Made by a program: the position numbers and the translations under genes. 64,000 bases of DNA. Origin: Bryobacterales bacterium (GTDB lineage: Bacteria > Acidobacteriota > Terriglobia > Bryobacterales > UBA6623). The notes beneath the pieces are model-generated. The model was given only the letters and a program-made list of their open reading frames with translations, was not told where the DNA came from and ran no database searches. The DNA is taken from assembly GCA_965226245.1 (NCBI GenBank), contig CBDDCL010000009.1, positions 9,624 through 73,623 on the forward strand, in the 5' to 3' direction. Below, piece after piece: positions 51,636-63,002 of this stretch. The stretch's first letter is position 1. The number at the start of each line of letters is the position of its first letter.

Positions 51636-52805
51636 TTAGGACGTGTCAAAGTACTCCTGCTCCAGCTGCCAGGCGTCGAGTCGCTCGACCACGACCATCG
51701 CACCGCCACAGCTTGGACACGTCCAAGTGGCTGGAAGGCAAGTCGGGCCGGACGCCGAGGGTTTGGCTGTCGTCGCTTGGTTGGTTTCCAGTAGTTGTTG
51801 ACATAGCGGCAACAACGCCCCACGTTTGCGGGCGGCGAGGAAGCCGAAGAAGCGGATACGAATGAAGCCGCGCGGCAGCACGTGCTGCAGGAACCTCCGA
51901 AGGAACTCTTCGGCCGTGAGCGTCATCAGCCGTCGCTTGCTGCCGCGGGCGTAGTCTTTCCAGCGAAAGGTGACCTTGCCTTGGGCGAAAGCAACCAAGC
52001 GATGATTGGAGATCGCGACCCGGTGGGTGTAGCGGGCTAAGTAGTTGAGGACATACCGCGGCCCGCCGAAGGGAGGCTTGGCGTAAACGACCCAGTCTTG
52101 GCGGAACAGCGATCGCACAAACGCGCGGAAGGCCTTCTGCTGCGTCAAGGGCTTCAGCGCGCCGGGAAGACAGAGTTCGCCATTGCGATAAGCGCGCTTG
52201 AGAGCGGCGACGAACTTGCCGCGAAAGACGCGGCTGAGCGCCTTCACCGGCAGAAAGAATCGATACCGTGGACGAACCCAGGCTTTGTGATCGGGCGAGA
52301 GACCACCCGCCGGAATCACACAGTGGAGGTGTGGATGGTGCATCAGATTCTGTCCCCAGCTATGCAGCACGCTGAGGAAGCCGATCTGGGCGCCGAGGTG
52401 CTTGGGATCAGCGGCGATTTCCAAAAGGCTGTCCGCACTGGCACGGAACAACAGGCCATAGAGAAGTCGCTTGTTGTGGAACATCAACTCCGCCAGCTGC
52501 CGCGGAACAGTGAAGACCACATGCACGTAGGAAACCGGCAGCAGCTCTTTCTCACGAGCGGCGAGCCATTTGTCCCGCGCGCCGGTCTGGCACTTGGGGC
52601 AATGGCGGTTGCGGCATGAGTTATACGAGATGGCCGCGGTGAAGCCACAGCGAGTGCAGCGGTCGCGATGTCCGCCCAGCGCCGCCGTACGACAGCGTTC
52701 GATGGCTGAGAGCACTTTCAAGTGCAGCCCGTTCAGCCGCGATCGATGTTGACGGATGAAGTCTTCGCCTGCCGCGCGAATGATATCGGCTACAACAGGA
52801 GTCAT
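51636..52805 (-). CDS. IS91-family rolling-circle (Y2) transposase
   Basis: CRT..LGGH, SCRNRHCPKCQ, HVVFTVP, HPHLH, YLARYTHR, EFLRRFLQHVLP.GF. Confidence 0.93.
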   Translation of the reverse strand: MTPVVADIIRAAGEDFIRQHRSRLNGLHLKVLSAIERCRTAALGGHRDRCTRCGFTAAISYNSCRNRHCPKCQTGARDKWLAAREKELLPVSYVHVVFTVPRQLAELMFHNKRLLYGLLFRASADSLLEIAADPKHLGAQIGFLSVLHSWGQNLMHHPHLHCVIPAGGLSPDHKAWVRPRYRFFLPVKALSRVFRGKFVAALKRAYRNGELCLPGALKPLTQQKAFRAFVRSLFRQDWVVYAKPPFGGPRYVLNYLARYTHRVAISNHRLVAFAQGKVTFRWKDYARGSKRRLMTLTAEEFLRRFLQHVLPRGFIRIRFFGFLAARKRGALLPLCQQLLETNQATTAKPSASGPTCLPATWTCPSCGGAMVVVERLDAWQLEQEYFDTS

Positions 52806-53833: not shown

Positions 53834-54002
53834 CATGAGCCACCCGTTACTGGCTCGGGCCAAAGTCCCGCTTCGGGCCGCGCTGCCGTTCCCGCGCTAG
53901 CGACTCGGCCCGAAGTCGCGGTCGTAGTCTCGTCCATGTGTCGCTCCGGTGTGATGCCCATCTGACGCGCCAGGTCGCCGCTGGCGAATGCTCGCGAAGG
54001 CG

Positions 54003-54227
54003 CGTTCGGCCTACGGTCAGGACAACGTGCTGGGCAGGTGGCTGGTCTATGCGGCTTCTGGCCATGGTGGCAACAAGCTGCTTCGGAAACGCGATCCGAG
54101 GAACTTCCGGTTTTCTATCCTTGAACGTGTGTCGCCGGACATGAGTGAGGGTGACGTGATCCGGCTGGAGGCAACTTGGAAAGAACGCCTTCACACTCGA
54201 TCGCCGCATGGGCTGAATGATAATTGA
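54003..54227 (+). pseudogene. GIY-YIG nuclease family C-terminal remnant
   Basis: SAYG..N..GRW..YA.SGHGGNK.L, F.FSILE, E..WK..L.TR..GLN.N. Confidence 0.65.
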
Positions 54228-54245
54228 AGGGTAGCGCCCAGATTT

Positions 54246-54661
54246 GGGTCACCTCACGAAACGGAAAAAATCGTACGCTAAGGCCGATTGAGCGGCGGGC
54301 GGGGCCGGAACTCGCCCTGTTCAACTTGCTTGTTCAGCCGCCAGCTATGGTCCAAAACATTGTCGGTAAAGAACTTGATCGACTGGGACATGCTCGAGTT
54401 GGCGTTCCGGGTTCGGGTCGAAGCTGCTCACCCGAACGTAGCCGATGCGGTGACCGTGCATGGCGTTCTCCTGAACCCAGTCTGTCAGGAAGAACTCTAT
54501 AACCCTGGACGGGATGTGTCCATCAATCCAAAATAGAACTCTATTCTGACGCCTCAGCACCCCGTCCCTGACGTTAGGCTAGGGTTTACTCCAACCCGAC
54601 GCTTCCCAAGGCGGCGAGAGTCGCTTAGCGTACGATTATTTCCGTTTCGTGAGGTGACCCC
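54246..54661 (-). mobile_element. Tn21-subgroup miniature element (TIME-like) with res region and tnpR stub
   Basis: TIRs GGGTCACCTCACGAAACGGAAA..ATCGTACGCTAAG; MHGHRIGYVRVSSFD stub; abuts another Tn3 end fragment at 54228-54245. Confidence 0.85.
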
Positions 54662-54685
54662 CATAAGCCCGATCCTTCGCCTAAA

Positions 54686-55581
54686 TGTATATGACCGTTG
54701 CCTGGGATGCTCCGGGCGGCCCCTGGGTTGCGCTGTCTCATGAGTACGTCCATCGCGTCTTTGCCGGTAGAACTCTGCCGCTTTGGCTGTCGGAAGGCCT
54801 GGCGGAATACTTGTCGCGCGTCCCCAACGCGGCCACCAGCCCCACCCTGGGACCCGCTGATCCGCCAATGCCGGTTCCCTACTTCGCCGGAAGGCTCACC
54901 GACAACCCCTGGCTGCCGTGGCCTGAAATCTGGTCCGCCGAACGCGAGTCGGCCACCGCGGATCACCCCAACTTCCGGCCGCAAAGCTGGCTGCTTGTTC
55001 ACCTGCTTGTCTCCGAAGGACTCGACCTGACCCAACTGAACCCCGCGACAGTGCAAGCACGTCTGACCCGGCGAAGCCCCGAAAAAATCGAAGCCCAGTT
55101 GCGCGCTGCCCTCGAGAAGCCCCTGTCAAACCGCTACCTGAACCTTCATGACAAATGGCGCCCCGCTCCTCCACCGTCGAACAGCCCTCGGCGGTTCGAT
55201 CCTGCTGACGCCGGCGCCTCAACCCAGCCGCGTGAGCTGGCGCCAGGCGAATTGCGCTTCGTCCTCGCCGACCTGCAGCGCGAAACCCAGCCACCCGAAG
55301 CCGTCCGTCTCGAACTCGAAGCCCTCAAGCGAGAATTCCCCAACCGTCCCGAGCCCAGCGAATCCCTCGGCGCGCTGGAGATGGACCAGCACAACTACGA
55401 CCCAGCCGAGCAGCACCTAGCCGACGCCGTCAAGAAGGGCTCCCGCAATCCAAGAACCCACTACCGCTACAGCCTTATGTTGATGCGCCCCCAACCCAGT
55501 CCCCAGCGGGCGGCTCTCGCGGTCAAGCATGCCCAGACCGCGCGCCAGCTCGACCCGGCACAGCCCGTCTATCTGCTCTAA
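54686..55581 (+). pseudogene. Internal fragment of an HExxH + TPR protein
   Basis: HEYVH, PLWL.EGLAEY, TPR helices; truncated at both ends. Confidence 0.7.
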
Positions 55582-56700
55582 AAACGAAAGATCGACATCA
55601 CTGCCGGGCGTGGCGTTCCAGCGGTCCGCGGTGGCGTCAATCCAAAGTCCGGCGGCCAGCTCGATTGCCTTCAACAAGCGCGGGCGCTTGACCTCCGGCC
55701 AGTAGCCGCTCAAATCCTCAAGCTCGGCGTAGGCGTCAATCAGCAGCGGCAGGATTGCTTCGGGATGACCGGGCCGGTACTCCTCGCGGGCCTTCATGAG
55801 AAGCCGGCTCGCGGCCGCCGCTCCGGGGACGCGTCCCCAGGAGGTGTCGATGCCTTCGAAAAGATCTCTCTCGGCTGGCTCGCCGGCGATGTGGGCGAAG
55901 AACGCTGGAGCGTTGCCTTTGCGTTGCGAGGCGCCCATGGCCTGGCTTTGGTGCAGGCTGCGGCTCTCGCCCGCGATCTCCGCGTAGGATTTGCCGAGCA
56001 CAGGATCGTACTGGCCAACGTTGATCCGAAGGCGGTCTTTCCTGGCTGCTGCGGCCTCCATCATTCGGCGGGTGAAGGTCGGAATGTTCCAGTAGAGACG
56101 TTTCGCCTTCCAGGGTTTGAGCCCTTGCTGGATTTGATCGGGGAATTGGCTGGGATCGCCGGCTGCTTCAAAGGCGACGATCGAAAGCTTGCCGATTGCC
56201 GTGTGCTGTCCATGACCGCCGCTGAGCACGGGTGAAAACCGCGAGACGACCACGTCGGGCCGGAAGCGGCGGATGACGCGGACCATGTCGCTGAGCACTT
56301 GCTCGCGGCCCCATTTCTCGAGTGCTTCCTCGGGATTCTTCGAGAAGCCGAAGTCGATTGCTCGGGTAAAGAACTGTTCGCCTCCGTCAATGCGGCGGGC
56401 GGCCAGCAATTCCTGGGTGCGAATCAAACCCATCAGCTCGGCCTGCTCGGCGCCGATCAGGTTCTGCCCGCCTTCTCCGCGAGTAGCGGAGAGGTAGGCC
56501 GTGCGCATATCGCGGCCGCGCGCAAAGTAGGCGATGACGGCGGTGTTTTCGTCGTCGGGATGGGCGCCCAGCATGAGCAGGCTCCCCAGAGTGTTGAGCT
56601 GGTCGAGTGTTTGTGCAAGTTCGGCGGCGCCGGTGAGCGGGGTGGGCGGCGGGGCTTGGGCGCTGAGAGGGAGGCTGACGAGGGCGCAGAGCAGCAGCAT
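55579..56700 (-). pseudogene. PIG-L/LmbE family deacetylase, C-terminally truncated
   Basis: GAHPDDE, TRGEGGQN, R..DFGFSK, RFRPDV, GHGQH. Confidence 0.85.
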
Positions 56701-56824
56701 GCGGGCGGGCCGAGCGCCGGAATGAGTCCCGGCGCGGCAAGCTGAGAGCTTGTGCCGCGATGGAATTCGCCGGCGGGCGGGGTTTTCTCGCTTGCACGCA
56801 GAGTCGCGCCGGCCGCGCGTCAGG

Positions 56825-57286
56825 TCACGGTTTTCGCTCATAAACTCCAATGTAACTGGTCTCAGCGATTACATGGCCTCGAAGGGCAGTGTCTAGCATG
56901 CGGCGTCTGACTCCCGGGGCCAAGCCGAGCGATGGTGTGTTCAAGGCGAACAGCTTGAAGAAATAGCGATGCGGCCCATTTCCAGGAGGTGGGCAGAGGC
57001 CTCCGTATCCAGGCTGCCCAAAGTCGTTGGTGCCGCTCAGGCCGGCCTGACCTGGCTCGAACGACTCGTCCAATCCTTGAACCGACACCGGGATATCGTA
57101 CAGCAGCCAATGATTCCAAGTCCCGATTGGGGCGTCAGGGTCGTCCACGATCAGGGCGAGGCTTTGGGTCCCCTGGGGCTCGCCGCTCCACGATAGGGCC
57201 GGAGAACGGTTCCCTCCATCGCAGGTGTAGCGCGCCGGTACGGTCTCCCCGTCGGCAAACGCTTCGATGTGCAGTGTCAGGGCTAT
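56825..57286 (-). CDS. YbhB/YbcL (PEBP) family protein; apparent ATA start
   Basis: YTCDG.N.SP.L.W, DDPDAP, HW, GYGG.CPP.G.GPHRY.F. Confidence 0.85.
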   Translation of the reverse strand: MALTLHIEAFADGETVPARYTCDGGNRSPALSWSGEPQGTQSLALIVDDPDAPIGTWNHWLLYDIPVSVQGLDESFEPGQAGLSGTNDFGQPGYGGLCPPPGNGPHRYFFKLFALNTPSLGLAPGVRRRMLDTALRGHVIAETSYIGVYERKP

Positions 57287-57351
57287 GGTCGCCCCCTCCT
57301 CTAGGTCTAGGACGCTAACATCAGGAAGCCCACATGCCGCCGAACGCTCAT

Positions 57352-59079
57352 CTAGTTCGCTGGCTCGGCTCGGCTCACGTCCACAAACGAAGCACCCCGG
57401 ACAACCCCGCCGTACTCCACCAAAGCTTCCAAGTTCGCGGGACCCGCCTCGAGCCGCACCGCCCGAAACTGGCACGACTCGTCGCCTGCCTCCACCGCTT
57501 CGCTCAGGCCCGCGCCACCGACATTCAGCCTGGCTCGGCCCGCCTCAGGCAGCGGTCCGGCGAAACGCAACGTCATGTCGAACTCGCCCGGCTCCTCGAT
57601 TTCAACCGCCCAGTAGCCGAGGCCATCCGGCAGCGCGCGCTGCTGGCCCTCGCCGCGCCAATCAAAGCGCGCCAGCGTCGCGGACTCTTCATGAGGCGTT
57701 CCGAGGTGGATCCGCACCGGGTCAAAACCGCGCGTGGAAGATACGTCGCGGAACCATTCCTCGTAGCCGCGGCGCATTTCCTCCACAATCTCGGGATGCG
57801 CCTCGGCAAGATTGTTCGTCTCGCCGGGGTCGGCCGGCATGTCGTATAGCTCAAACTTCGCGTCTTCCGGAAACGGGTCGGTGTGTTTGCCCAGCGGCTG
57901 GACGATTTTCCAGCGCTGATTCCGGGCGAACACGTTGCGGTTCTTCTGGGGCGCATCGCCGCGGTGGTTCTGCAGGTAGATCGTGCGGTCCGGCCAGTCC
58001 TCGGGGGAAATACCGCCTGTGAGCAGAGGCATGAGGCTCACGCCATCGAACTTCGATTCCGGGGCCGCAATTCCAGACGCTTCCAGCAGCGTCGGCACGA
58101 CGTCCATATGGGCCGCGATTCGGTCGATCTTGCGGCCAGCCTCGAACTCACCGGGCCAGCGAATCAGGAACGGCACGCGCGTGCCGCCATCGTAGGCGCT
58201 CGCCTTGCGTCCCTTGAGACCGGCGGTATAGGTCTGCTGCGTCGGTCCGTTGTCGGTCAAGAAGATCACGATCGTGTTTTCGGCGAGACCAAGCTCGTCC
58301 AATTTGGCCAGCAGCCGCTCCAAGTTTTCATCGAACTCGGTGATCATCCCGTAGACCCGTGCCGTGTTCTCGGGAAGCCCCATCTCGCGGTAGGGCGCAA
58401 TGTACTCCTCGTCCACATCAAACGGCGAGTGTGGCGTGTTGGTCGCCAGGTAGCCGAAGAACGGCCGATCGCGATTCTCTTCCACGAACTCGATCAGAGC
58501 GTCGGTGAAGATTTTCGTGCAATAGCCGTGATACTTCTTTGACTCGCCGTTGTGTTCGAGCACTGGGTCCCAATAAGTATTGCCCGGAGGACCGGCGGGC
58601 TGGCCGATACCGCCGCCTCGGTGCACGAGCACTTCTTGAAACCCTTGATCGCTCGGCCTCAACGGGTAGTTGTCCCCGAGATGCCACTTGCCGAAGATGC
58701 CGGTCTTGTAGCCTTCGGCGGCGAGCAGCTCAGCCAGAGTGACGGCTGCGGGATCGAGGAAGGTTCGCCCGAGGTGCGTGTCGATGACGCCATTTCGATA
58801 GCCATGAACTCCCGTCAACAGCGCCGCGCGCGTCGGGGCGCACTTGGACTCGACGTAGAACTGCGTAAATTCCGTGCTCTCGGCGGCAAGCCGGTCGAGC
58901 GTAGGCGTCCTAATGTAGGGGTTCCCGTGGAAGCCGACTTGGGCCCATCCCTGGTCGTCGGTCATGACCAGCATGATGTTCGGTCTTTCTGGGTCTGGGG
59001 GAGCCTCCGAACAACCGCCCGCGAAGCAAAGGAACGCTGCAACGCACGCAATCTTGAGTTTCCACTTTGATCCCAGCAC
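57352..59079 (-). CDS. Arylsulfatase lipoprotein
   Basis: PNIMLVMTDDQG, CAPTRAALLTG, GKWHLG; lipobox-like AGGC; start approximate. Confidence 0.9.
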   Translation of the reverse strand: MLGSKWKLKIACVAAFLCFAGGCSEAPPDPERPNIMLVMTDDQGWAQVGFHGNPYIRTPTLDRLAAESTEFTQFYVESKCAPTRAALLTGVHGYRNGVIDTHLGRTFLDPAAVTLAELLAAEGYKTGIFGKWHLGDNYPLRPSDQGFQEVLVHRGGGIGQPAGPPGNTYWDPVLEHNGESKKYHGYCTKIFTDALIEFVEENRDRPFFGYLATNTPHSPFDVDEEYIAPYREMGLPENTARVYGMITEFDENLERLLAKLDELGLAENTIVIFLTDNGPTQQTYTAGLKGRKASAYDGGTRVPFLIRWPGEFEAGRKIDRIAAHMDVVPTLLEASGIAAPESKFDGVSLMPLLTGGISPEDWPDRTIYLQNHRGDAPQKNRNVFARNQRWKIVQPLGKHTDPFPEDAKFELYDMPADPGETNNLAEAHPEIVEEMRRGYEEWFRDVSSTRGFDPVRIHLGTPHEESATLARFDWRGEGQQRALPDGLGYWAVEIEEPGEFDMTLRFAGPLPEAGRARLNVGGAGLSEAVEAGDESCQFRAVRLEAGPANLEALVEYGGVVRGASFVDVSRAEPAN

Positions 59080-59093
59080 GGCCACAGTATACA

Positions 59094-60759
59094 CCAGGAT
59101 TTCCATTTTGGCCCTGGCACGGTCACAGTGTACACCCGCGCTGCCCCGAATACGACGTCTTTCCGCGCTGAACCCTGCACATCACCTCCGGCGGCAGGCC
59201 CCAAAGCCCGTCCGTCCGCTCACAGACGTTGATGGAGCGGGCTGAACGGCACACCGGCCGACACTGCTCCCTGCGAAGCCTTTTCGGAGCTAAAAACTGT
59301 TGATCCTCGTCCAGGTAACGCTACCCGCTCGGCAGCGGCAGCGCCCAGATCCTGTGCAGCATGTCACCGAACAGCCGCCGGTTCAGATGCCCCTCGGCCA
59401 GCAGCAACCAGTAGTAGCGCGCGTGCTTGACCAGCCGGCCGCCGGTCTTCATCAGCCGCTGCTGCAAGCTCGTGAGCGACCAACTCTTGATCCTGTTCGG
59501 CAGTCCGAGCCGCCGCCACAAGTTGCCCAGGTTGTAGGCCAGCACGCTGAGTTGCAGTCGCACTTCGTTGGCCCGAAAGCGATGGCACGAAAGCCGCGTC
59601 CAGTGCGTGGCCTGTTTGCCTTCTTTAATCCATTGCTCGGCCGTGCCGCGCTTGTTGTAGAAGCGCACCACCGACCGGCTTGGCAAGCTCATGTTGGTCA
59701 CGATAAATCCGACCCGCGGGAACAGCTCACCGAGATGATGCTCGACCTTGGCCACGATGCGTCGCGGCTTGGACCAACTCTCCGCCTGATAGCGGAAGCT
59801 CTTGTAGCGCACCAAGGGCTTGCGACCCGGCCTGCCCGGCGGGCGAAACAAGATGTCTTCGATCGCCAATTCCAAGCTCTTGTTGGCCGGAATGCGAATG
59901 GCGTACTGCACTCCGCGTTCCTCCGAAAACTCATAAATCTCCGGCTTGGCAAAGACCGCATCGCCCCGGAAGGTGACCTGTTTGCCCGCAGCCTGTTGGC
60001 GCTTGATCTCGGGCAGCAGCAACTCCTTCCAGTCCTCAGCGCTGTGCACGTTGCCTGGACGCAGCTTCGCCGCCAGGCAATCCCCATGCTGGTTGAACAA
60101 CAACAGCGGGTGGTAGCAGACCGACTCGAAATGGCCGTTGTAGGCGCTGCCCTCTTGCTGGCCGTGGACAGGGCTTTCGGTCGAATCCATGTCGAGCACG
60201 ACGCGCTCGGAGTCGTCTTGCGTCTCGGCTTGCGCCACCAGCTCGCGGTTCACAGCCATCAGCCCCAGCAAGTTCTCCTCGCTCGCCAGCATCTCCGTCT
60301 CGAAGCTCTGCAGTCGCGAGGTCAGTGCCCCGCCGCGATCCCAGTTCCTCTTCGAGCCGATCAAGCGAAACGTCGGGTCAGCCGACACTCGGACGGCGTC
60401 ATTGAGGTCCTCGTAGCCTGCCAGCCGAGAGTAGACTGACTGCCGCAGCAGATCGGCCAGCGGGAACTTCTTGTTCAAGCCTTGCCGTGGGTCACTGAGG
60501 TGTTCGTCGATCAGCTTCCCGAGTCCGAGTCGCTCGTCCAGCTCGCGGACCAGGATCAGCCCGCCGTCGGAAGTGACACGCGATCCTTGGAAATCGACTT
60601 TCAATAAGCCGTTGAAGCTTAGCTGGAACGGTTTGTTTTCTTTTTCACCCATTGGGTGTTGATCTCCTCAGCGCCTTGAGTGCTTTCCAACCCGCATCAA
60701 TAAAGGCGTCCGAGGCCACCCGATGGTTAGCAGAATCGAAACTAAAGTGGGAATCCGGG
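59094..60759 (-). mobile_element. IS1380-family IS (second type, 1666 bp)
   Basis: IRs CCAGGATTTCCATTTTGG / CCCGGATTCCCACTTTAG. Confidence 0.9.
59321..60652 (-). CDS. IS1380-family DDE transposase
   Basis: TSDGG, LDMDST, RGDA.F, FYNKRGTAEQWIKEGK. Confidence 0.93.
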   Translation of the reverse strand: MGEKENKPFQLSFNGLLKVDFQGSRVTSDGGLILVRELDERLGLGKLIDEHLSDPRQGLNKKFPLADLLRQSVYSRLAGYEDLNDAVRVSADPTFRLIGSKRNWDRGGALTSRLQSFETEMLASEENLLGLMAVNRELVAQAETQDDSERVVLDMDSTESPVHGQQEGSAYNGHFESVCYHPLLLFNQHGDCLAAKLRPGNVHSAEDWKELLLPEIKRQQAAGKQVTFRGDAVFAKPEIYEFSEERGVQYAIRIPANKSLELAIEDILFRPPGRPGRKPLVRYKSFRYQAESWSKPRRIVAKVEHHLGELFPRVGFIVTNMSLPSRSVVRFYNKRGTAEQWIKEGKQATHWTRLSCHRFRANEVRLQLSVLAYNLGNLWRRLGLPNRIKSWSLTSLQQRLMKTGGRLVKHARYYWLLLAEGHLNRRLFGDMLHRIWALPLPSG

Positions 60760-61092
60760 CTAAAGCGCATCACCATAAGCCCGATCCTTCGCCTAAAACG
60801 CATCACCATACAAGTAGTTAAAGAACAAGTAGTTAAAGAACAAGTAGTAGGAGCGGCTACGGCTGTGGATAAATCACTGAAGAGAAAACACCCAAGAGAG
60901 GGGCTAACGCCCCTCCCGAAAAGAAAAACCCAAAACCTTCCTTATAGGTAAAGAACTGAAAACAAAAGGCTTACACCATACCGCGGCGGAACGGGCAAGC
61001 GGACCGACAATAAAACCCAACCCAAAACCCCGGATAGCCTCCGCCAAGCGGCGAGTCATGCCCGCTGCGCTACGGCCCTACGGGTGACAGAC
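60760..61092 (+). other. Plasmid origin module 3 without rep; iteron array split by the IS1380 unit
   Basis: CGCATCACCATA at 60766 and 60799; CAAGTAGTTAAAGAA repeats; DnaA box TGTGGATAA 60864-60872; backbone homologous to modules 1 and 2. Confidence 0.75.
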
Positions 61093-61166
61093 GCCCTGTA
61101 AAGGGCGAGCGGAGCGTTCTGGCACTCACGGTGCACCGGGGAACGGCCCGCTTATTTTGCAAGGGG

Positions 61167-61894
61167 TCATAAGCCAGCCGGAAACCGAAATCGGATGCCC
61201 GCTTCAATAAGGTCAGCATCGATCTCCGCCCTCCGATTTGAGCGAAAGCGATAGCCAAAGCGGAACTCCACACGCTTGGAGACCCGAACCGAGAGGCCTC
61301 CCATGAGCTGATAAGCGAACCGGGAATCCTCGGATAATCCGAGTGTGAGAGGACCGGCACCACCACCAAATACGGGACAGAAGGAGGCGGAGGGGACGCA
61401 TTCGTTCTCATAGGTGATCGTGAGGTTTTCGTCGTGGAAGAAGGCTCCCAGACCGAAACCGGCATAGGGACTCACTCTCCATTTGGGATGGCGGTAGTAG
61501 ACATTACCCATGAAGGACTGGGTCTTGAGTTCTCTGTCGAGACCTATGACGGGCGTGATGATGGTGGCATCTGGTTGGGAGACTTGTCCGTCTGGCCCGG
61601 AGAAGGTGGGGGGCGGGATGTTCCGAGAGGAACTTTCGATACGATTGCCGATACCGGCTTTCTGGTATCCCCATTCAATCTCGGTCGAGAAACCTCTTTG
61701 AAGGCGTACCCGAAAGCCGCTGTAAAACCAGGGCCAGCCTTAAAACCGGAGCGCCTGAAAACGGCTGATCCAGCAAAATCGAGATAGAACTCACCGTCTT
61801 TGTCAACATCCTGTGCACTCAGAGAGCCACACAACAAGGGCAAGGCGACGAGTAGAGTGAGAAAATATTGTTGCAGCAAGGTACAAATTGACAT
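61167..61894 (-). pseudogene. Outer membrane beta-barrel (opacity-like) protein, frameshifted
   Basis: Signal peptide + GF.AAFGYAF in one frame; PYAGFGLG, FAYQLMGG, EAGIRFRF in another. Confidence 0.65.
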
Positions 61895-62015
61895 CGGAAC
61901 ACACGCGACCGCTACCTGTCCCCAACTAATTGCCCCCGATAGACCAGCAATCACGGCGGCCACGGTGATTAGCATCTTACACATCGCGCCATCCCGGAGA
62001 ACTACCGGGCTTACA

Positions 62016-62545
62016 CCTGAATTATGCACTGCGGCGTGGACCTGAGGAGGGCTGAGCCGCAAGGGACCATTGGGGACCCCCGAAAACATGGGGTAAAAAG
62101 GTCGGCTGGCAAAGATCCCAGCTTCGCCAGCCAACCCCAAGGAGGTCACCCAAATGGTTACCAGACGAAAACAGCATAGCTCCCAAAGGCCCGTCCAACA
62201 AGGCCCAGCCGTGACGGCCTCGCGGCCCAATAAAATCGGGGCTTCGACGCCTTACAACTTCCGCGGCAAGAAGCCGACTCCCTACGGCGGCTTGCTGCCG
62301 GTGGTCGGGAGGGCGCTGATCTGAGAGCCTGGCTATGCGCTATGCATAAAATTTTATGCACTAGCCGTAACGCACTGGAAACACGTCACTTCCGAGCGAG
62401 GTTTTGACGACGCGGATTCTGGGCGGGAAGGGAAACCGGGAACGGAGAAGCCAAAAGACCAGTTGCCGAGCTACCACCTCACGACGACCGCCAACCCGCT
62501 ACGAACGCAGCCACACTCGCAAAGTGAATCTGTGCATAATTCAGG
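62016..62545 (+). mobile_element. 530-bp IS1380-derived MITE, copy 2
   Basis: Near-identical to 3725-4254; flanks TTACA/TCCTA give no TSD. Confidence 0.9.
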
Positions 62546-62645
62546 TCCTAACAACCCCTGTCTGTTCCTGATAAGCTTGTGTTCGGTGAATAGTAAACAT
62601 GCACAGAAACCGCGAAAGGTGCCAAATCGCTATATGTTTATCCAC

Positions 62646-62913
62646 TGCTGTCCAAATTAGCTCAGACGATACCCTTTTGGACGGGTTAAGTCCTTGGTTT
62701 TCAATGTCAGGCTATGCTCACCTAAAACCAGGTTCCCCCGGCTAGCTCATGCTGTCCAAATTAAGCAGCTCTCCGCAGGAACTCTTCGGTGAGGCTCCGA
62801 CTGCCCCAGAAAGCCTGTTTAAGGGGCTTTCGGTGCCCGACCCCAGGGCACACTCCACGGCGACTCGGCCTGCATGCTGTCCAAATTGCCGTAGCGAGAA
62901 TCTAATTTGGACA
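62646..62913. repeat. Repeated TGCTGTCCAAATT motif (3 direct, 1 inverted core)
   Basis: Direct at 62646, 62750, 62875; inverted AATTTGGACA at 62904. Confidence 0.6.
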
Positions 62914-63002
62914 AGAGTGATGTTTATCGGCGGCGAGTCTTCGCCACTTTTTACTCGCTTGTTTGATCTTCTTTCTGCTTTCGAGAACTTGGAAGCCTTC
63001 CT

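Follow-up and report, generated by a model that had tools for sequence, protein, structure and literature searches.

In the window (the whole stretch of DNA analysed, 64,000 nucleotides corresponding to positions 9624-73623 of contig C9 in a 7.84-Mb genome of a Bryobacterales-like acidobacterium), an insertion sequence (IS) of the IS1380 family and 4,408 bp of DNA beyond its right inverted repeat (IRR) have very probably been moved as a single unit by one-ended transposition. The transposase would use the left inverted repeat (IRL) together with an arbitrary distal point in place of IRR, resulting in a "transposable module" (TMo); the 6,074-bp unit would have entered a RepA_C-type plasmid origin within its second iteron, thereby duplicating the target pentanucleotide CTAAA. 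Block 54686-60759 fits the TMo design in every tested structural feature except the likeness of its surrogate end to IRR. The features concerned are the following (TSD, target site duplication):

54662..54685, plus strand: left remnant of the 33-bp iteron array, comprising a spacer and the start of iteron 2 and terminating with CTAAA as the left TSD copy (54681-54685)
54686..60759, minus strand: transposition unit (TMo) of 6,074 bp, made up of the IS and its cargo (4,408 bp) beyond IRR
59094..60759, minus strand: IS1380-family insertion sequence of 1,666 bp, with IRR at 59094 and IRL at 60759
59321-60652, minus strand: tnpA, 443 amino acids (PF13701, 1.3e-117; NF033539)
60760..60810, plus strand: right TSD copy (60760-60764), remainder of iteron 2, spacer and intact iteron 3

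The immediate flanks of the IS (59094-60759), ATACA and CTAAA, differ, so that the IS is without a TSD of its own; it is the whole 6,074-bp block that is bracketed by CTAAA (54681-54685 and 60760-60764). Both points had been made in the initial annotation of this DNA and were confirmed from the sequence. The right boundary of the unit coincides to the base with the IRL terminus (60759) common to eight full-length IS copies; tnpA runs from 60652 to 59321, and beyond IRR the cargo extends from 59093 down to 54686. The 25-nt sequence CCATAAGCCCGATCCTTCGCCTAAA is located at 54661-54685 and at 60773-60797, with no third site in the 7.84-Mb genome. A scripted join of 54661-54685 with 60765-60772 produced a 33-nt unit that is identical to the adjoining unit 60773-60805 at 32 of 33 positions; the earlier claim that removal of the block plus one CTAAA rejoins a tandem 33-bp repeat therefore holds with this match. 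The boundaries of the unit are unusually clean because its target is a phased repeat.

The tnpA frame is intact; its product matched PF13701 over profile positions 3-433 of 435 and exceeded the cut-off of the NCBIfam IS1380 equivalog NF033539 (368 versus 180 bits). In a comparison with PLSDB, the transposase showed approximately 50% amino acid identity to IS1247-family entries and 24% to ISEcp1, while nucleotide matches of the IS were annotated as ISPme1, ISKpn23 and IS1247. Of the ISEcp1-style transposition originally proposed, the mechanism is retained and the closeness to ISEcp1 is not, the transposase being nearer to the IS1247/ISPme1 type. Alignment with the seven other full-length copies placed the termini of the IS at 59094 and 60759; the end sequences (IRR, CCAGGATTTCCATTTTGG; IRL, CCCGGATTCCCACTTTAG) agree at 14 of their first 20 positions. 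In the genome, this family is represented by 21 IRL and 17 IRR ends. Plain 5-bp TSDs border two of the eight full-length copies (CTTAA at C5:19097-20762; TCAAG at C7:25858-27522, the latter insertion corroborated by an uninterrupted paralogue), and two further copies belong to units with cargo.

The second of these units was recovered when the flanks of all 21 IRL ends were screened for junction-crossing paralogues, an approach that detects only insertions into repeated or paralogous DNA. A paralogue reached the junction at seven of the 21 ends; these seven comprised one new unit (C7:6166), one simple insertion (C7:27522), two mutual duplicates and three uninformative ends (C3:41060, C8:8319, C13:69155). 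The new single-IS unit, C7:1140-6166 (genome G000, locus L126), measures 5,027 bp, includes its IS at C7:4502-6166 and is bordered by the TSD TTCAA. Its flank shares 98% identity with the 3' end of a repA on C8, where the target is uninterrupted (position ~13053, ...GAACTATTCAACGGCTCC...); on C7, the left half of this target ends with TTCAA at 1135-1139. The cargo consists of three TPR-repeat genes co-oriented with tnpA, and its distal end agrees with IRR at 4 of 14 positions. Taken together, the unit on C7 and that in the window indicate that one-ended movement has recurred in this genome. The two mapped units both reside in replication modules (2 of 2; iteron and repA, respectively), which says little on a target preference because of the restriction of the screen to repeated or paralogous DNA.

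The interrupted plasmid origin

Judged by its sequence, the target of the window unit is the iteron array of a RepA_C-type origin. The array adjoins a conserved module, and its left part is bordered by a miniature element:

60810..61096, plus strand: conserved origin module with 15-bp AT-rich repeats, a DnaA-box-like site and ~230 bp of conserved sequence
54245..54661, no strand assigned: Tn3-type miniature element (TIME-like) of 417 bp with 38-bp terminal inverted repeats, without TSD

The genome assembly consists of a 7.12-Mb contig and 14 smaller ones of 24-117 kb, each with a G+C content near 60%. A 290-bp stretch (60804-61096) on the right side of the unit recurs at 76-83% identity on at least 10 other small contigs; sites of this origin family were located on C2, C3, C6, C7, C8, C13 and C14 (three on the latter) as well as at C9:51005. 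Of the 77 family genomes, 25 likewise possess the module, also on large (multi-Mb) contigs. Within the window, the AT-rich 15-bp repeats (ACAAGTAGTTAAAGA, 2.6 copies) occupy positions 60810-60848 and are followed by the DnaA-box-like site TGTGGATAA (60864-60872), which is present in each aligned origin copy and which corresponds to the DnaA-box consensus read on the opposite strand. A scan of 54000-62800 against Rfam gave no match, by which the origin module was dismissed as a known RNA.

The origin copies share this backbone, but each possesses private direct repeats upstream of the AT-rich repeats. TRF arrays of 33-34 bp (2.5-2.6 copies) that end at the AT-rich repeats were detected in six of 11 copies in the genome; among 11 relatives, TRF arrays of 32-34 bp were detected in five, and two to three repeat copies are discernible by eye in all 11. 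The paralogous origins carry these arrays uninterrupted and at the same position as the split array of the window. One uninterrupted array from a related genome (G005, locus L115) has the same spacer as that of the window, GATCCTTCG, and agrees with it at 21 of 33 positions. The label "iteron array" given in the initial annotation is therefore sound: the repeats are situated where 32-34-bp arrays of 2.5 copies are found in paralogous RepA_C origins. A repA-like frame lies directly upstream in nine of the 11 origin modules of the genome, and both upstream frames that were tested belong to RepA_C (PF04796, ~1e-29); homologues on 1,100 PLSDB records are annotated as "replication protein RepA", with less than 60% identity.

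The general organization of the family appears to correspond to that of iteron-regulated RepA origins (PF04796), i.e. repA, DnaA-box-like sites, three direct repeats spaced by ~33 bp, AT-rich repeats and a further DnaA-box-like site. In contrast, no repA adjoins the window locus; its origin is a relic that has lost repA and the first iteron, while the second iteron is split and a single iteron is intact. The TIME-like element stands where a first iteron, DnaA boxes and repA would be expected, and would have removed the first iteron. The inverted repeat of this element presumably resembles that of Tn3. Further copies of the element exist; a 99.3% identical one is located at C7:30924-31340, with inverted ends of 37-38 nt beginning with GGGGTCACC (GGGG-type); since the C7 copy ends at CCCC and is followed by other DNA, the 25-nt repeat piece left of the unit is not part of the element. 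TIMEs are described in PMC4133298. The C7 copy adjoins a repA fragment (C7:31340-31594), and repA is represented on the 14 small contigs by a total of ~20 copies or fragments, with several on the same contig. The origin family may represent a many-replicon plasmid set kept compatible by iteron divergence, or integrated plasmids.

Cargo genes and probable order of capture

The 4.4 kb beyond IRR had been described as containing a sulfatase, ybhB and two truncated genes; this content was substantiated by profile searches and by comparison with relatives. The following features are distinguished:

54686..55584, plus strand: segment A, internal fragment of a HExxH peptidase/TPR-like gene that lacks both ends
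55585..56850, minus strand: segment B part 1, PIG-L family deacetylase gene, cut at approximately codon 423
56825..57289, minus strand: segment B part 2, PBP/YbhB family gene with uncertain start codon (PF01161, 5.8e-41)
57352..59106, minus strand: Cys-type sulfatase open reading frame (ORF) of 584 codons with CAPTR motif and lipoprotein-like signal (PF00884, 3.7e-61)
59053..59093, plus strand: IRR', degenerate IRR end left by an older IS of the IS1380 family and arranged in tandem with the present IRR

All intact cargo genes are encoded on the minus strand, as is tnpA, and point out of IRR; the co-oriented cargo may be expressed by outward read-out. Segment A (298 amino acids) aligns with residues ~66-157 through ~330-451 of frames of 523-623 amino acids in six relatives; because only internal parts of these longer frames are matched, the gene must have been cut at both ends. 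At the nucleotide level, segment B is 84% identical to C15:3914430-3916142, with the identity setting in abruptly at 55585, the chromosomal PIG-L paralogue being a frame of 885 codons; residues 63-216 of the PBP/YbhB protein align with relatives. The sulfatase shares 79% and 76% protein identity with its homologues in two related genomes (G019 and G011, respectively) and 52% with that of the own chromosome; among the matches listed for genome_contigs, relatives with 37-60% identity originate from metagenome-assembled genomes of Acidobacteria, Bryobacterales and Planctomycetes, which weakly supports the acidobacterial assignment of the host. Searched at the DNA level against 41 relatives, PIG-L/ybhB reached at best 84% identity (on the own chromosome and in G002) and the sulfatase 75% (in G011). 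Junction 55584|55585, which is preceded by CTCTAAAAA, truncates two genes simultaneously, as expected from a nested capture.

On sequence grounds, 59053-59093 is what remains of an older IS1380-type end; the present IS is located 41 nt inside this remnant. IRR' is identical to nucleotides 1-41 of the IS at 30 of 41 positions without gaps, compared with a genome background maximum of 25 of 41; all 18 sites that scored at least 27 of 41 (other than the own site of the query) are IS1380-type IRR ends. The remnant adjoins codon 19 of the sulfatase ORF, where the N-termini of the G011 and G019 homologues are short and unrelated; the first 18 codons, together with the ATG at 59106, are therefore derived from the IS. 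The start codon is positioned inside IRR, and the reading frame crosses IRR', which results in a predicted N-terminus …SKWKLK ahead of the native signal peptide.

The mosaic composition of the cargo (peptidase fragment, truncated PIG-L gene plus ybhB, sulfatase) suggests repeated captures, probably in a stepwise manner. An older IS1380-type element would have landed in the first codons of the sulfatase gene and left its end as IRR', and the present IS would then have settled 41 nt inside this remnant. A first unit ending at 55585 within the PIG-L gene would have been inserted into the peptidase gene, and a second event would have extended the unit by 899 bp, to 54686. We infer this nested capture, the order of events and the IS generation that moved the unit. 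It is also conceivable, if rather improbable, that such modules do more than carry genes: the IS end would provide a start codon, a charged N-terminus and perhaps a promoter and so create a working hybrid sulfatase, and the modules would prefer replication modules as targets, silencing surplus origins in multi-origin cointegrates.

Junction support and alternative explanations

Public sequencing runs (X15, X17, X18 and X19) were compared with the 7-kb stretch around the unit by means of their contigs; joints and bridges were counted among those listed, and weight was given only to parts of the stretch with listed contig cover. The left junction is spanned by 1,032-nt contigs of X15 and X19 that match 54632-55663 with 0 differences and also include the inner junction 55584|55585; one of these runs may be from the source strain. 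A contig of X17 fits the window from 54685 rightwards only (10 differences in 233 nt) and a second fit starts at 55583 (7 differences in 260 nt), both continuing into unlike DNA on the other side. Due to this divergence at 54685 and 55583, both cargo breakpoints are real with respect to natural DNA elsewhere.

Several results weigh against one-ended transposition. The distal end at 54686 agrees with IRR at 6 of 14 positions, a score equalled at 10% of cargo positions and hence at chance level; over 20 positions the agreement is 6 of 20 (equalled at 38%), and the inner end at 55585 scores 4 of 14 (equalled at 45%). A surrogate IRR is consequently not recognizable: of the earlier statement on the distal end, the count of 6 out of 14 stands and a meaningful likeness does not. 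Surrogate ends are also weak in published cases, and the poor agreement for this reason lowers the mechanistic reading little. A donor locus with the IS beside intact cargo was not found in the 41 related genomes; on the own chromosome, the 84% match of PIG-L/ybhB was the best. The empty-site allele itself was not found either: there was no second copy of unit or array in the genome, no 54685-to-60760 joint among the joints listed for the four runs, and not a single match in an exact 25-nt search of metagenome contigs. Four of the eight full-length IS copies have no TSD, which is left unexplained. A consensus scan revealed no sigma-70-type outward promoter at the IRR end and a relaxed scan only two 8/12 matches, the promoter type of the phylum being outside both scans. 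Finally, neither an independent contig bridging the right junction 60759|60760 nor one bridging IRR with 31 letters on each side was among those listed.

The alternative that survives best, though unlikely, is another route to a 5-bp TSD: a composite transposon whose second IS was lost exactly at 54686, or mobilization by an older IS with the present one as a later nested or recombinant occupant. Indeed, IRR' testifies to two IS generations at this spot, and recombination between copies is plausible in view of the 21 IRL and 17 IRR ends. However, no IS sequence is present at or left of 54686, and an exact loss that spared both the TSD and the phase of the array would be unlikely; the right boundary corresponds to the base to the IRL of the present IS, and a mobilization by the older IS would in any case remain the movement of a single-IS unit of the IS1380 family. 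An assembly artefact, in which cargo, IS and origin were misjoined through repeats (IS, TIME), is very improbable. The repeat density of the region, its very high depth and the unbridged right junction speak in its favor; the error-free contigs across the left and inner junctions speak against it, and a misjoin would yield neither a 5-bp duplication that matches nor a 33-nt repeat that stays in phase. Least credible of all is a coincidence, i.e. the loss of the TSD of the IS by rearrangement and a chance match of the distant CTAAA. The frequency of this pentanucleotide (six times in 54000-61000, 17 times in the window) and the four other IS copies without TSD speak in its favor; chance, however, fails to account for a unique 25-nt repeat ending in that very CTAAA and for the in-phase restoration, so that this alternative is close to refuted.

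Comparison with known modules and neighbouring elements

Capture of adjacent DNA by one-ended transposition has precedents among relatives of this IS. ISPme1 mobilizes segments adjacent to its 3' end and carries a strong outward promoter, and ISEcp1 forms similar structures via misrecognition of its terminus, as described in PMC9330008; for IS1247, a direct repeat (DR) of 5 is listed in Table 2 of PMC3281130. The window unit resembles the Paracoccus TMos of ISPme1 and IS1247a (PMC3281130, PMC9330008) in that a single IS and a variable length of DNA past its 3' end form one unit bordered by 5-bp repeats. It differs from them by its host, an acidobacterium instead of an alphaproteobacterium, and by the fact that its movement is deduced from sequence. 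Unlike that of ISPme1 (reported strong outward promoter; PMC9330008), the IRR end gave no promoter in scans that do not cover the promoter type of this phylum.

The ISEcp1 units of blaCTX-M and blaCMY-2 share with the window unit the membership of the transposase in NF033539, the succession of IRL, IRR, cargo and arbitrary end, a 5-bp TSD that encloses the entire unit, and cargo genes oriented like tnpA. Besides the distant transposase (24% amino acid identity), the window unit deviates from these by its cargo, which consists of a sulfatase, ybhB and gene fragments without a resistance gene, and by a similarity to IRR at chance level, whereas weak similarity is reported for the alternative IRRs of ISEcp1. 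The initial annotation had noted metabolic rather than resistance cargo; its account of the content (sulfatase, ybhB) was correct, and cargo of this kind has precedents in the family. According to PMC3281130 and PMC9330008, TMo cargo extends beyond resistance genes and the units shape plasmid structure. The mechanism is likewise already known, and none is added here. The unit would rather document one-ended capture by an IS1380-family element outside Proteobacteria and outside antibiotic resistance, with the second unit and the layered cargo as a record of repeated captures, and would support such capture as a general route by which plasmids acquire metabolic genes (a sulfatase in this case).

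Parts of the 7-kb stretch also occur in runs labelled as sponge and marine metagenomes (shares of 0.14-0.32) and in four coded organisms (shares of 0.44-0.77), shares that may stem from the IS and other repeats; four runs were compared with the window. Tn3-family transposase fragments are present on the small contigs. An element of 533 bp without ORF is located at 62014-62546 and exhibits the inverted ends ACCTGAATTATGCAC; a 1.9-kb query that contains it (61101-63000) produced 122 BLAST matches in the genome, of which nearly all of those listed cover this element at 90-98% identity. In contigs of X15 and X19, an IS IRL end is joined directly to the same element. An IS91-family transposase gene (Y2_Tnp and zinc-binding domain) is encoded on the minus strand at 51636-52805, 1.4 kb left of the TIME-like element.

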